From: Desulfobacterales bacterium
GTDB taxonomy: Bacteria > Desulfobacterota > Desulfobacteria > Desulfobacterales > JAFDDL01
Reading direction: 5' to 3'
Assembly (NCBI GenBank): GCA_963675725.2
Contig: CAXXXZ010000002.1
Span: 1,839,459-1,871,458 of the forward strand
DNA length: 32,000 nt
Part shown: piece by piece, positions 6,560-30,000 of the stretch
Layout of the letters: each line of letters opens with the position of its first letter
Numbering within the stretch: the stretch's first letter is position 1
Position numbers and translations under genes: made by a program
The notes under the pieces: generated by a model
The model's database searches: none
What the model was told of the DNA's origin: nothing
The model's input: only the letters and a program-made list of their open reading frames with translations

Positions 6560-6813
6560 CGAATGGATTCATTGGGTTGATGAGTTACAAAAAGAATCGG
6601 CTCTCCTTTCCATCGAGTTTAGCATGGCAAAAATGTTTTCGTAGGTATCATCCAATATCGCGAACTTCTCCTAATTTGATCAATCAATGAATATGTTTCA
6701 TTTTTTGGGAATTTTTTCGTATGTTCATATATTTCCATCGCAGCGTCGAAAGCTTTTCTGTAGACTTTCAGATCTCTCACTGACCGGACCCTATTCGAAT
6801 GTTTTTCAACCAT
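6560..6813 (-). pseudogene. Four-helix-bundle (23S rRNA IVS-type/Avd-like) protein, internally deleted
   Basis: The N-terminal 53 aa (DLKVYRKAFDAAMEIYEHTKKFPKNETYSLIDQIRRSS) are joined out of frame to a C-terminal piece (..DDTYENIFAMLNSMERRADSF). Confidence 0.6.
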
Positions 6814-7006
6814 CGTCTATCATCCTAGCAAAGCGGTCGTCCCACGTCCATCGGTCTTTACTGTTCACCGATCACTGATCACTCATTACTCATCACTTTT
6901 TCCCTGATCCCTTGCCCTTTTCAGTTCACTGCTCACTGTTCACTGCAGTTATTCACAGTTCACTGATCACAGATCACAGTTCACAGTTCACGGTAGTTAT
7001 TCACAG

Positions 7007-8174: not shown

Positions 8175-8223
8175 TAATCTGTGGATAGAAACTTATAAAC
8201 TTATGTACGTCCCTGAATTCCAC
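8175..8223 (+). repeat. Element Y, 3' part
   Basis: taatctgtggatagaaacttataaacttatgtacgtccctgaattccac. Same right end as 23671, 29093 and 30000. Confidence 0.8.
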
Positions 8224-9830: not shown

Positions 9831-9945
9831 TGTCTTTCCGTTAATTCTGAATGTTGAATTTTGAATTAAGGTAGTTGTCCAATTTTATAACGACGGGCTT
9901 CTTCTGTTTCAACAATTCAAAATTCATAACTCACAACTCACAATT
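9831..9945 (+). repeat. AT-rich hairpin element X
   Basis: A 12-bp perfect stem, gaattttgaatt (9856-9867) with aattcaaaattc (9914-9925), around a conserved 46-nt loop (aaggtagttgtccaattttataacgacgggcttcttctgtttcaac). Confidence 0.75.
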
Positions 9946-10073
9946 GTCTTTTGGCCAGTCACTGATCACTGCTAACTGTTCACTGCCCAATCATTACTCA
10001 TCACTCATCACTCATCACTTTTTCCCTGATCCCTTGCCCTTTTCAGTTCACAGATCACAGTTCACGGCACTTA

Positions 10074-10093
10074 TTCTGTCAAGAATGAAGACC
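10074..10093 (+). repeat. 20-bp terminal box (copy 4)
   Basis: Sequence ttctgtcaagaatgaagacc, preceded by cacggcacttat. Confidence 0.8.
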
Positions 10094-12806: not shown

Positions 12807-13396
12807 AATCGGATACCTCACAATGGTGATTATGTTCAAGTGTACACTTTAACTGATGTTGTGTCCACAATAAAATCGTTACATATTGTTACTATCCGTA
12901 ATTATAATCGAAATATTTGAATTCCGACTAAACTATTTTGTACATAACTCAAAATTCAAAATTTATAAGCTTCTCTACATACTTGTAACTGACTTCGCTC
13001 GTTGAAGTCATGTCCGTTGATCAAACTGGCCGCTTCGGCAACCAGCGGCGGGGCTGACTTCCGACCTCCGATCTCCAATCTCTGACTTCTGATTTCCGGT
13101 TTCATATTTCTGCATACCGACCTATTACCGAGAAGTTCACGAAGCACGAAGGAACAACAATTCAAAATTGTAGTTAACTGCCCTCCGACCTCTGACCTCT
13201 GATTTCTGCTTACTGTAGTTACTGTTCACCGTTCACAGATCACAGTTCACGGTAGTTATTCACAGTTCACTGCTTTTCAATCGCCTTAACGCCCTCACGA
13301 CTCACGCCTGACGGTCGTTAAGCCCTCCGACCTCTAACTTATATTCATTATTCAAAACTCACAATTCAAAATTGAAGCACCACCCTCCGTCATTGC

Positions 13397-14061: not shown

Positions 14062-14264
14062 CATTTTTTTCTTTGTTCATTCAAAATTCATAATTCAAAA
14101 TTGTACTCAATCGCTCTCACGCCTCACGGTCGTCTTAATCTCATCACTCATCACTCATTACTCATCACTTTTCCTCTGTCCTCCGACCTCTGACTTCCGC
14201 TCTCACGACTTACGCCTTACGGTCGTTCGGTCCTCCGATCTCTGACTTCTGATCTCTGTCTTTC

Positions 14265-14284
14265 TTTTGTCAAGATTCAAGACC
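14265..14284 (+). repeat. 20-bp terminal box (copy 5)
   Basis: Sequence ttttgtcaagattcaagacc, followed by tga as in copies 4 and 7. Confidence 0.75.
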
Positions 14285-14319
14285 TGATATTCATATAAAG
14301 GTCGAAGGGAAATTGGCCG

Positions 14320-17193: not shown

Positions 17194-17494
17194 GCGTTCT
17201 TTTCACTTCCATATACCCTCAACACTCAACCCTTTGATTTCCGACCTCTGGTCACACCGTCCATCGTCCAAGCGGCTTGTCGGGCTGTAGCTTGAAAAGC
17301 GGAGCCTGACCTGTCGGGCGTAGCTTCACGCGAAGCCTGAAGCGGTCATCCCTCGTCCTTCGATCTTTCTTCGTCTATCGTCCGAGCAAAGCGATCGTCC
17401 AACGTCCGTCGGTCTTTACTGTTCACCCATCACTGATCTCTGCCCACCGAACCTATTACCACGAAGTTTACGAAGAGCTCGAAGAAACAACGGA

Positions 17495-17589
17495 TATTAA
17501 TTTTGAATGTTGAATTAAGGAAGTTTACCTGATTTTATAACGACAGGTTCATTTTGTTTTACTAATTCAGAATTCAAAACTCAAAATTG
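17495..17589 (+). repeat. AT-rich hairpin element X (diverged copy)
   Basis: attaattttgaatgttgaattaagg...gattttataacgac...ctaattcagaattcaaaactcaaaattg. Confidence 0.5.
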
Positions 17590-17748
17590 TCGTTTCCCCC
17601 TCTCCCGCCTTACGGTTGTTAAGCTCTCCGTTCTCTGCTTTGTTGTCAATTCAGAATTCAACATTCATAATTCAAAATTAAAAAGGCGCCCTCACGACTC
17701 ACACCTGACGGTCGTTGAGTTCTCTGATCTTCGACCTCAGATTTCGGT

Positions 17749-18500: not shown

Positions 18501-18758
18501 GTTTTACCCATTTTTACTGTTTGTGGCTGTGTATTGCCGTTATCTGAATTCTGATATCAAATTTCCGACCTCTGTCTTTTGTTCTCTGTCCTCTGACTTC
18601 CGTTCTCCGTTCTCTGCCTTGTTGTCAATTCAAAATCCAAAATTCAAAATTGTACTCAATCCCTCTCCCGCCCTCTGACCGCTGTCTTTTGCCCTCTGGC
18701 CTCAGACCCCTGGTTTTTCCCTTTCCTGTTCACTGATCACGCTTCACCGTTCACTGGC

Positions 18759-18778
18759 TTCTGTCAATATTCAAGACC
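18759..18778 (+). repeat. 20-bp terminal box (copy 7)
   Basis: Sequence ttctgtcaatattcaagacc, followed by tga. Confidence 0.75.
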
Positions 18779-18916
18779 TGACACTCTTGCCTTTATTCGT
18801 GATCTTCGTGATCTCTGTGGTGAATTGTTTTTCAGCCATGAAACTATTTCGAAAGGACCAGCTCATGAGCCTTCCTGGTTCTTTTCAATGAAGTGCAATT
18901 TTAAACCCACCAACTG

Positions 18917-19045
18917 CATTCACCACGAAGTTAATGAAGAGCTTGAAGAAACAACGATTCATAATTCAAAACTCAAAATTGTCGCTTACCGCTCTCTGAC
19001 TTCCGACCTCTTGCCCTTCGCAGTTCACACAGATCACTGATCACT
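18917..19045 (+). repeat. 129-bp mosaic segment, near-identical copy of 1886-2014
   Basis: See 1886-2014. Here it lies 3' of glycosyltransferase copy 2. Confidence 0.85.
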
Positions 19046-19121
19046 CATTACTCATCACTTTTTCCCTGATCTCTTGCCCTTTTCAGTTCACTGCTCACTG
19101 TTCACGGTAGTTATTCACAGT

Positions 19122-22383: not shown

Positions 22384-22415
22384 TTTTAAAATATATCACG
22401 AAAGTTTTTTACGCT

Positions 22416-22497
22416 GTTCTTCGCGCCTTGGCGTCTTTGCGTGACATTTGGGTTTTATGCCTCACGCCCGCTCCGCTCAAGACGCAAAGCCGCAAAG
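22416..22497 (+). repeat. Element A (short variant), upstream of GxxExxY gene
   Basis: gttcttcgcgccttggcgtctttgcgtgacatttgggttttatgcctcacgcccgctccgctcaagacgcaaagccgcaaag. A direct repeat of 21920-22005. Confidence 0.75.
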
Positions 22498-22727
22498 TTG
22501 TTGAATTTATCTGCGCCAGCTGACCTCTGACCTCCAAACTCTGATCGCAGCCACTTCGTCAATTCAAAATTCACAATTCAAAACTCAAAATTGTCGTTTC
22601 CCGCTCTCACGCCTTACGGTCGTTAGCTCTCCTCATTGATTCCAGATCTCAGTTCATCGTCCATCGTCCGAGCAAAGCGTTCGTCCATCGTCCCTCGGTC
22701 TTTACCGTCACTGATCACTGTTCACTA

Positions 22728-22791
22728 CATTTTAAATTCTGCGTCAATCGGCGCACTCCTCAAGGGGGTATTAAACTGAAAAATCTGTGGA
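22728..22791 (+). repeat. Element Y, 5' part
   Basis: cattttaaattctgcgtcaatcggcgcactcctcaagggggtattaaactgaaaaatctgtgga. Confidence 0.75.
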
Positions 22792-22839
22792 CTGGAAATA
22801 TAAATCAGCAGACCAGGAGAAAGTCCCCCAAAGCTACCC

Positions 22840-22868
22840 TTGACACTATGGAACACGTGTTATAAATT
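22840..22868 (+). promoter_or_regulatory. Sigma70-like promoter of AbrB-RelE unit
   Basis: TTGACA followed 15-17 nt later by TATAAATT. Confidence 0.5.
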
Positions 22869-22902
22869 TTGTTTAATAGTTTAATTGTAACAGGAGCTAA
22901 AT

Positions 22903-23444: not shown

Positions 23445-23560
23445 TGCTTATTTCGCTTTTCTGCTGTAGTTAAACTCCGACCTCTGGTCTCCGATCTCTG
23501 TCGTCTGTTCTCTGATTTCTTGTTTTTTACTGTTCACCCATCACTGATCACTGTTCACTG

Positions 23561-23671
23561 CATTTTACATTCTGCGTTAATCGGCGCACCCCTCAAGGGG
23601 GTATTAAACTGAAAAATCTGTGGATAGAAACTTATAAATTTATGTACGTCCCAGAATTCCCTGAATTCCAC
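23561..23671 (+). repeat. Element Y (full length)
   Basis: cattttacattctgcgttaatcggcgcacccctcaagggggtattaaactgaaaaatctgtggatagaaacttataaatttatgtacgtcccagaattccctgaattccac. Confidence 0.8.
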
Positions 23672-23728
23672 CCCTCATCATTTTTCCCCCGGCCTCAGGC
23701 CGCCGACCTCCGCCCCCTGAGCTTCCAC

Positions 23729-23757
23729 CTATCATTGCTTGACAATATACTGATATT
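23729..23757 (+). promoter_or_regulatory. Sigma70-like promoter of DUF4258 unit
   Basis: cattgcTTGACAatatactgatattgtaATATAT. Shares the module with 13391-13425. Confidence 0.55.
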
Positions 23758-23825
23758 GTAATATATTATTAGGATAATGAGCGTTTAAAGAACATAATTT
23801 TTGATACATAATAATTCAGAATTTA

Positions 23826-24148: not shown

Positions 24149-24369
24149 AGTGTGCAATCTGTCGAAACGGACAAACAATTGACGGCCATATTACAGTTGT
24201 TCTTGAAAGAGAACAATCAACGCTCGTGTTTAAAAAGGTTCCTGCAAAAATTTGTGAGAACTGTGGTGAAGAATATTTGTCCGAAGAAACGAATAAATTA
24301 CTTTTACAAAAAGCCAAAGAGGCCGTTGACAGGGGAGTTGATCTGGAGCTGTTAAGATTTGCAGCATGA
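24145..24369 (+). CDS. YgiT/MqsA-type zinc-ribbon antitoxin-like protein
   Basis: MKCAICRNG..ICENCGEEYL. Paralogue of 20417-20653. Confidence 0.7.
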   Translation: MKCAICRNGQTIDGHITVVLEREQSTLVFKKVPAKICENCGEEYLSEETNKLLLQKAKEAVDRGVDLELLRFAA

Positions 24370-24538
24370 ACAGGGCTCAGTTAACAAATGTCTTTTTCAG
24401 TTCACGGATCACTGATCACTGCTAACTGTTCACTGCCCAATCATTACTCATCACTCATCATTTTTCCCCCGACCTCAGGCCGCCGACCTCTGACTTCAGT
24501 TCTCTGATCTCTGTTACAATCCGTTCACTGATCACCTA

Positions 24539-24558
24539 TTCTGTTAAGATTCAAGAGC
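24539..24558 (+). repeat. 20-bp terminal box (copy 9, diverged)
   Basis: Sequence ttctgttaagattcaagagc. Confidence 0.65.
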
Positions 24559-24563
24559 TGAAA

Positions 24564-28823: not shown

Positions 28824-28991
28824 CTAAAAATAAGGGCACCACCGACAGCCCCCTTCAACACACCACACTCACGGCTTGTTCATTGCGCCATTAGGATCGA
28901 CTGCGCGCCTACTGTTGATTGGCTGATATTAAAACGTTGGTTTTGGCTGGAATCTCAAACGTTGGTCACAGTCATACATCACTGTTCACTG

Positions 28992-29093
28992 CATTTTACA
29001 TTCTGCGTTAATCGGCGCACCCCTCAAGGGGGTATTAAACTGAAAAATCTGTGGATAGAAACTTATAAACTTATGTACGTCCCTGAATTCCAC
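28992..29093 (+). repeat. Element Y (full length)
   Basis: Near-identical to 23561-23671. Its right end ...ctgaattccac joins directly to a truncated PIN gene. Confidence 0.8.
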
Positions 29094-29958: not shown

Positions 29959-30000
29959 CGGATAGAAACTTATAAACTTATGTACGTCCCTGAATTCCAC
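29959..30000 (+). repeat. Element Y, 3' part
   Basis: cggatagaaacttataaacttatgtacgtccctgaattccac. Confidence 0.8.

Follow-up and report, generated by a model that had tools for sequence, protein, structure and literature searches.

We analysed a window of 32,000 nucleotides (C2:1839459-1871458) from the genome of a Desulfobacterales bacterium (label G000; four contigs, 5.26 Mb, 47% GC). The subject of the analysis is a series of intergenic blocks composed of short degenerate motifs, with the block around positions 13040-13390 of the window in focus; positions given without a contig name refer to the window throughout. The blocks form the spacers between the members of an array of selfish genes, and this array interrupts an exopolysaccharide locus located on the - strand. 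In the 20 kb to the left of the window all genes are on the - strand and include those for Wzy, Wzz/tyrosine-kinase, Wza, porin, ABC transporter, radical-SAM and initiating sugar-transferase proteins; a UDP-GlcNAc 2-epimerase gene and a WecG transferase gene at the right end of the window, as well as two copies of a GT4 glycosyltransferase gene within it, have the same orientation. Toxin-antitoxin pairs of the MazEF, HigBA, VapBC (two pairs), MNT-HepT (three pairs) and MqsRA types lie between these polysaccharide genes, together with pairs that combine DUF4258 with an MqsA-like protein and MazE with a ParE-like protein. Other small genes of the array encode a PD-(D/E)XK (GxxExxY) protein and an AAA_14-DUF4143 ATPase, and two are fragments of genes for four-helix-bundle proteins; the mobile elements comprise two group II introns and two insertion sequences (IS), one of the IS110 family and the other an IS21 element. 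The share of intergenic DNA in the window is 30%, and the spacers measure 200-700 bp.

It should be noted that the host is not a cyanobacterium, because no photosynthetic reaction-centre gene (Photo_RC) was found in the genome, rpoN is present, and dsrA scores 613 bits at a cut-off of 393. It is thus a non-phototroph that has dissimilatory sulfite reductase, and it probably belongs to the sulfate reducers of the Desulfobacterota.

Seven-base periodicity and modular composition of the blocks

Autocorrelation at a lag of seven nucleotides gave an identity of 0.50 for 13040-13390 and 0.41-0.57 across the other named blocks, compared with a background of ~0.25 at other lags within 1-15 and 0.28 for the whole window. 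Forty of the 57 arrays detected in the window by Tandem Repeats Finder (TRF) have a period of 7. Using a sliding detector, we found 213 period-7 tracts in the whole genome, versus 57-149 for periods 5, 6, 8, 9 and 10; for the island around the array the corresponding numbers are 69 and 0-3. As a control, the 53 period-7 tracts of a 2-Mb stretch were compared to its shuffled version, which contained one. The motif families GTTCAC/GATCAC, CTCATCA, CTCTGAC/CTCCGAC, AATTCAA and CGTCCAT share the 7-nt period and are therefore heptanucleotide tandem repeats: their head-to-tail units exceed those of other periods, and just 4 of 137 motif matches fall inside genes, as expected of the short tandemly repeated repetitive (STRR) sequences and long simple sequence repeats (LSSR) of bacteria. 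The other named motifs (CNCGCCTNACGGTCGTTA, GAGCAAAGCG..., the TTTTTCCC...CAG string and GAAG...AACAAC) are non-periodic boxes or parts of longer modules. Among the 37 tracts of the ~19-kb core of the array, which is delimited below by its uniform polarity, 18 have consensus units with at most two mismatches from GATCACT (11% expected); this GATCACT-like group comprises about half of the core tracts, a second group is centred on AATTCAA, and intermediates such as TTCACAA are also found.

A previous description of this DNA, made from its letters without database searches (the sequence-only reading), had listed eight motif groups. All of them are present where it placed them, except that the copy of GAAG...AACAAC at 13128-13160 is strongly diverged, and its picture of mosaics of short motif families, mostly co-oriented, intergenic and with more C than G on the + strand, holds. 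The common 7-nt period was overlooked in that reading, and its opinion that this is not a described repeat family is contradicted: the motifs belong to the described class of heptanucleotide tandem repeats, and the terminal box discussed below resembles repetitive extragenic palindromic (REP) sequences.

The heptamer "dialect" of the blocks is restricted to one island of ~50 kb. The 69 tracts of the island lie inside C2:1.815-1.885 Mb, where the TRF rows of periods 7, 14 and 21 peak in the same three 20-kb bins. Mismatch-tolerant motif searches located the boxes and heptamer dimers almost exclusively in the island and almost all on the + strand, and the island units (canonical forms AAAATTC, AACAGTG and ACTCATC) are essentially absent from the rest of the genome. 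A second dialect is found there, represented by ~38 dispersed elements in which conserved flanks enclose (ACAGTCG)n. These elements (e.g., C2:282415-282529, 398118-398198 and 1092476-1092528) occur in both orientations; they consist of a conserved left flank that includes a CCGGCAAAGCCGG hairpin, a core of 3-14 units, (ACAGTCG/TCAGTCG)n, and the conserved right flank CAAGGATTGGGGC. In addition, an identical stretch of >60 nt starting with TCAGGGATTCGTGCTCC... was found at 10 sites of the genome (e.g., C2:800020, 1186873 and 2224791; C3:520183) and probably corresponds to the end of an insertion sequence present in multiple copies.

The focus block (12940-13390, +) is situated between vapB (-) and the MNT gene (+) and contains heptamer tracts of the AATTCAA, CTCTGAC/CTCCGAC and GTTCAC/GATCAC types and the K box (CNCGCCTNACGGTCGTTA); its period-7 TRF arrays start at 12949, 13060, 13178, 13224 and 13350. 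The block 3' of HepT (14062-14287, +) can be represented as AATTCAA, K, CTCATCA, CTCTGAC, K, CTCTGAC and terminal box, with a lag-7 identity of 0.53, TRF arrays starting at 14079, 14140, 14173 and 14233, and the strongest skew of all blocks (71 C and 26 G). All other blocks are also given here for the + strand. The block at 6787-7006 consists of the P-Q-P-D module (the leader of a four-helix-bundle gene fragment), CTCATCA, the T module and GTTCAC runs, and that at 9831-10093 of the element X hairpin followed by GATCAC, CTCATCA, the T module, GTTCAC and the terminal box. At 17194-17714 the order is P-Q-P-D, E, element X, K, AATTCAA and K; at 22384-22902 it is CTCTGAC, AATTCAA, K and P-Q-P-D. 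CTCTGAC and AATTCAA tracts, a box at 18762 and then a string of modules, E-A-S-G-D-H-T-D-G, make up the block at 18501-19121 (177 C and 92 G), the string being a duplicate of 1905-2001 and 6863-7006. Tracts of CTCTGTT, GTTCAC and CTCATCA are accompanied by the D13 module at 23445-23825; the block at 24149-24563 has tracts of GATCAC/GTTCAC, CTCATCA and CTCTGAC and a terminal box (24542) that adjoins the mqsA stop codon. Finally, the block at 1850-2436, in the part of the island with mixed polarity, contains an E-A-S-G-D string, a reversed (GATGAGT)n tract, P-Q-P-D and a box at 2330.

Modules of 77-114 nt (families D7, D12, D13, D15 and D17) are repeated 3-5 times in the blocks with 62-98% identity and in direct orientation throughout. 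We define the following combinations: (i) P-Q-P-D, the module that forms the 5' leader of both four-helix-bundle gene fragments; (ii) element X followed by the K box; (iii) CTCATCA, the T string, GTTCAC and GGYAGTTATTC, followed by the terminal box; (iv) the string E-AATTCAA-CTCTGAC. The leader had been noticed from the letters as well, and the assignment is borne out: P-Q-P-D precedes both fragments, of which one (6619-6813, -) matches the 23S_rRNA_IVP family (PF05635, E 1.1e-11) and the other (2156-2241, -) has a matching translation, and the DNA at 2156-2309 is 96% identical to that at 6728-6881. Element X has the structure (TTTGAAT)n-loop-(ATTCAAA)n; between fixed anchors, its 3' arm comprises 2, 3, 4 and 4 units, and exactly 7 nt are missing from one of the 5' arms. 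Changes of copy number by whole units between related copies, which are expected from slippage, are thus observed in element X, while most other modules are without indels. The K box was rejected as an order-wide element, since its occurrence is limited to this genome. Exact dimers of AAACTTAT are located at 8189-8204, 29059-29074 and 29966-29981, one of them within the D13 module, and a 114-nt copy of this module (28978-29091) is 98% identical to 23547-23660.

Strand polarity and the terminal box

The near-uniform orientation is the sole unusual feature of the repeat mosaics. In the window, 116 motif matches are on the + strand and 21 on the - strand, and most of the reversed copies are 5' arms of hairpins such as element X. 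Uniform polarity is found solely at ~6.5-25.6 kb of the window, i.e., in the core, where 33 tracts are C-rich on the + strand and 4 are G-rich; the remaining parts of the island are mixed (12 versus 13). The sequence-only reading had assumed uniform strand polarity, which applies to the core but fails in the rest of the island and is not intrinsic to the motifs. Similarly, its "G-poor" + strand is an adequate description of the tracts, but for whole blocks the deficit is just moderate: the GC skew is -0.14 in intergenic DNA and -0.05 in genes, with single blocks down to -0.46 (e.g., 14062-14287).

Neither replication nor local transcription accounts for the polarity. The cumulative GC skew indicates an origin near 3.87 Mb and a terminus near 1.42 Mb, and the + strand is the lagging strand at the island. 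Replication-strand bias was rejected as the cause, since the orientation of tracts outside the island fits the replichore in 72 of 125 cases (p=0.11) and a single replichore contains the second dialect in both orientations. Control by the direction of adjacent genes or operons was also rejected as a general rule, since the contexts of the blocks are convergent, tandem and divergent, and the C-rich strand of neighbouring regions and relatives variously has the same direction as the large genes, the opposite direction or a mixed one.

The terminal box is a 17-nt sequence, TGTCAAGATTCAAGACC, located at 14268-14284 on the + strand, and it is one of 10 co-oriented copies in the window; the others start at 435, 2330, 5594, 10077, 17752, 18762, 21107, 24542 and 29831 (all +). 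Among 201 sampled genomes of the order, the exact 17-mer TGTCAAGANTNNAGACC is present in 45 (36 of 126 genera), compared with 2 matches of a reversed control pattern. Outside this genome the TGTCAAGAATGAAGACC box usually extends with TGACCCC, frequently forms inverted pairs with loops of 10-70 nt (loci L141-L160), and is repeatedly found ~70 nt from the start of genes encoding 312-317 aa with a Y1_Tnp (IS200-like) domain and a DnaA-type C-terminal helix-turn-helix. Judging from these sequences, the terminal box looks like the REP sequence of a family of transposases of this order that resemble REP-associated tyrosine transposases (RAYT). Good copies in the present genome are almost confined to the window, where all are on the + strand, unpaired and with a decayed tail (TGACCCC). 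The features of REP/REPIN-RAYT systems, i.e., inverted pairs and a Y1 gene alongside, are observed in the other genomes, whereas the boxes here are co-oriented singletons; no Y1 gene or tyrosine recombinase was found near the island. It should be noted that most boxes in other genomes are without adjoining heptamers (mean upstream lag-7 identity of 0.28). The sequence of the terminal box was not found in the literature that we searched. An IS110-family element starts ~3 nt past a terminal box (window 14268-14290). Elements of the IS1111 type are known to target REP-like sequences and, by analogy, the terminal box may be the target of the IS110-family element.

The architecture of C-rich heptamers followed by a box is also present in toxin-antitoxin arrays of two further genera. 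In G006, from the same family and another genus, the array at C44:50-70 kb (locus L134) has 24 tracts that are C-rich on the + strand and 5 that are G-rich, six to eight boxes (all +), and polysaccharide genes on the - strand. Between the latter are genes for TacAT, an HI1420-type antidote and DUF4258, UPF0175, MqsA-like, PD-(D/E)XK, four-helix-bundle and AAA_14-DUF4143 proteins. The G000 and G006 arrays show patchy similarity at the DNA level, and the P-Q-P module is multicopy in both, with 74-90% identity. In several units of the G006 array (C44:50001-70000) the boxes are preceded by AATCTGCGT 9-mer repeats and not by heptamers. In G108, from a different family, a small toxin-antitoxin array has C-rich mosaics of the CTCTGAC type immediately 5' of its box, which adjoins the mqsA stop codon, like the window box at 24542.

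One of the heptamers is distributed far more widely. An exact search for three CTCATCA units returned >120 contigs, many of them from Pyrinomonadaceae, with further sources in Planctomycetota, Chloroflexota, Bacteroidota, Nitrospirota, delta-proteobacteria and a few cyanobacteria. The tracts in those phyla are located at the 3' ends of genes, in 25 convergent, 30 tandem and only 3 divergent contexts, in agreement with what has been reported for other heptamers (PMC4692102). The CTCATCA tracts frequently form long perfect hairpins, which have the order (TGATGAG)n-loop-(CTCATCA)n in 24-26 cases and the opposite order in none; such fixed-handed hairpins are found in Pyrinomonadaceae and several phyla (L010, L031, L070, L080, L086, L114 and ~20 more contigs). 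In other phyla, a general link of (CTCATCA)n to toxin-antitoxin, four-helix-bundle or PD-(D/E)XK genes was rejected, as none were detected within 1 kb in 120 contigs using phmmer with single queries, which is a weak negative result due to the low sensitivity of this test.

Origin and possible roles of the blocks

The explanation that we favour, and to which we give an even chance of being correct, is that the blocks are slippage-prone spacer DNA made of heptamer repeats and relics of cassette ends, with a polarity caused by direct duplication or directional entry and a main effect of providing micro-homology for cassette turnover. An array of selfish genes (toxin-antitoxin pairs, PD-(D/E)XK and four-helix-bundle genes) would have colonised the exopolysaccharide locus, and the blocks would be its non-coding spacers. 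Three layers can be proposed: (i) short arrays of 7-nt units, about half of them one or two steps from GATCACT, GTTCACT or CATCACT and a second group related to AATTCAA, which would have been created and resized by replication slippage, like other heptanucleotide simple repeats of bacteria; (ii) mutually copied composite modules of 80-115 nt, which may be relics of earlier cassette ends, i.e., the four-helix-bundle leader, the heptamer-armed element X with the K box, and the CTCATCA-T-GTTCAC-box string; (iii) the REP-like 17-nt box of the order. The co-orientation would result from descent of the modules through direct-repeat recombination and duplication, or from entry in one direction relative to the box. 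Dense direct micro-homology would then enable duplication, deletion and shuffling of cassettes. A probable side effect is that rightward (+) transcripts, being C-rich, G-poor and unstructured, could load Rho, whereas leftward transcripts of the polysaccharide genes could not.

Several observations weigh against this explanation. Most paralogous modules align without indels, suggesting that slippage is not rampant. Unrelated cassettes in both gene orientations lie between co-oriented blocks; thus, descent by duplication alone is insufficient. The conservation of the P-Q-P module and of the box between genera (74-90% identity) suggests selection or mobility and not neutral debris.

The effect on Rho may also be the very reason for the existence of the blocks. 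According to this alternative, which we consider unlikely, the blocks are selected polar insulators: Rho would load onto + RNA, halting cassette read-out and antisense transcription, and the G-rich RNA of the - strand operon would pass. Rut-like windows, defined as 78-nt windows with C/G>=2 and >=25% C, make up 27% of those in the intergenic DNA of the core on + RNA, 1% on - RNA and ~3% chromosome-wide, and the + RNA of core spacers is as structured as shuffled sequences (minimum free energy) and more weakly than - RNA. A C-rich, G-poor and weakly structured RNA is therefore found for the + strand alone, and Rho is present, so that the Rho-utilisation idea of the sequence-only reading is compatible with the data, the agreement being one of composition. 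A rho gene (C2:1813044-1813265, -; 431-aa frame) is situated ~6 kb to the left of the island, and a shorter Rho-like gene is at C2:4412115. Intrinsic terminators, a candidate that we rejected for the blocks, are no commoner in the core than chance predicts (19 terminator-like sites versus 19.3), which would suit insulation by Rho. G000 and G006 both have their polysaccharide genes on the - strand and the C-rich strand on +; however, this arrangement may be shared by descent, in which case they are not independent cases. Moreover, the relation to the direction of large genes is reversed in L135, L136 and L140 and mixed in L131 and L133, and the sense RNA of window tracts downstream of genes is C-rich in 30 cases versus G-rich in 25.

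The occurrence of the box elsewhere suggests another possibility, namely that the heptamers and the box together are the end at which cassettes recombine in a directional system other than an integron, driven by an IS200-like Y1 transposase, with the C-rich strand as a single-strand substrate or an accessory binding array. The excess of exact boxes in the order over the control, the proximity of boxes to Y1_Tnp genes and their inverted pairs in other genomes, and the IS110-family element next to one box are consistent with such a system, as is the fact that in G000, G006 and G108 the boxes close heptamer blocks and bound cassettes of 1-4.5 kb with genes in either direction. Conversely, the general lack of heptamers at boxes of other genomes, the absence of a Y1 gene or tyrosine recombinase near the island and the loss of the conserved TGACCCC tail from the window boxes argue against it; in addition, the borders of the glycosyltransferase duplication do not match boxes, and cassettes common to G000 and G006 are without box-to-box homology. 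We regard this reading as quite improbable. A combination of both roles can be imagined, in which the heptamer mosaic and the box would be a conserved end-module of a directional non-integron array that is serviced by Y1 in trans and prefers polysaccharide loci. The heptamer strand would then be a single-stranded landing region, or an accessory one, and would at the same time shield the host operon as a one-way Rho insulator; this combination is distinctly speculative and, in our judgement, improbable. Least credible of all is a function of the heptamers as binding arrays for a sequence-specific protein or RNA regulator (e.g., a post-transcriptional one), or for a GATC-reading protein on GATCACN units, because, although the GTTCAC and CTCTGAC types recur in G001, G004, G006, G014, G022, G029 and G108 and such a role has been proposed for another heptamer (PMC4679880), many different units are mixed in each block, the distance to start codons varies, the contexts are convergent, tandem and divergent, and the array encodes no candidate for the binding protein.

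Comparison with known repeat systems

The heptanucleotide STRR sequences of cyanobacteria were reportedly described by Mazel and colleagues in 1990. Their unit, which we take to be CAACAGT, has its nearest counterparts in AACAGTC, an exact rotation, and AACAGTG, with one mismatch. The possibility that the blocks are cyanobacterial STRR in the strict sense was rejected, given the absence of a reaction-centre gene, the presence of rpoN and dsrA, and the different units. According to the summary of Mrazek 2007 that is given in PMC4679880, 7-nt units dominate the long simple repeats among LSSR of 5-11 nt, and polymerase slippage is blamed. The same paper (PMC4679880) deals with TAACTGA and mixed intergenic heptamers of Beggiatoaceae, cyanobacteria and Bacteroidetes that differ by 7-nt indels between strains, with sets of heptamers in the same orientation in Microcystis, and with a proposed regulatory, e.g., post-transcriptional, role of the TAACTGA repeats. 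GGGAATC and GGGGAYT repeats, and heptamer simple repeats located just downstream of open reading frames, have been reported as well (PMC4692102). Like these heptanucleotide repeats (STRR/LSSR, TAACTGA and GGGAATC), the blocks contain 7-nt units in short (2-8 copies), degenerate, intergenic arrays, with several unit types per spacer and lengths that differ in 7-nt steps. Unlike them, the present repeats belong to a non-phototrophic host with dsrA and rpoN, consist of other units, are concentrated in one ~50-kb island and not dispersed, are embedded in larger modules that are closed by a REP-like box, and are co-oriented over 19 kb.

Bacterial interspersed mosaic elements (BIMEs) of E. coli combine a REP-type unit with short conserved motifs, and a role in the formation of transcript 3' ends and in Rho-dependent attenuation has been proposed for them. 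The blocks resemble BIMEs in being extragenic mosaics of a REP-type unit and short motifs in variable order and number. However, BIMEs have alternating inverted palindromic units, whereas all 10 boxes of the window are on the + strand and none are paired; the filler consists of heptamers and not of S/L/r/l motifs, and the sequences are unrelated. With REP/REPIN-RAYT systems (for REPINs, see PMC3116915) the blocks share a short extragenic box that is conserved across the order and, in other genomes, often forms inverted pairs and flanks IS200-like Y1 genes. The differences are that the box is nearly confined here to the array, as co-oriented singletons with a decayed tail and no Y1 gene nearby.

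The array resembles integron arrays as a long series of small, mostly selfish units, with co-oriented repeats between them and an over-representation of toxin-antitoxin genes. In contrast to integrons, which have imperfect palindromes (attC) of ~60-120 bp, the spacers here are heptamer mosaics of 200-700 bp, and the orientation of the genes is mixed. By eye, the blocks are mosaics of direct repeats without the inverted cores that attC requires. An integron was rejected, because there is no tyrosine recombinase near the island; the nearest PF00589 matches (C2:1333556 and C2:2463319) are >400 kb from the array.

To our knowledge, heptanucleotide repeats are among the commonest long simple repeats of bacteria, and a function has been established for none of them. 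The window makes two roles testable, i.e., one-way Rho insulation and a part in cassette turnover within hypervariable surface-polysaccharide loci; if neither holds, the region would be an ordinary repeat-rich junkyard of a genomic island. The repeat class is known, and what is new is the restriction of a dialect to one island, the locally uniform polarity, and the fact that toxin-antitoxin arrays within polysaccharide loci repeatedly combine the repeats with a REP-like box. The blocks represent a compact non-cyanobacterial case, in which one dialect occupies a single cassette array, in one orientation over 19 kb, and the same box is found in at least three genera.

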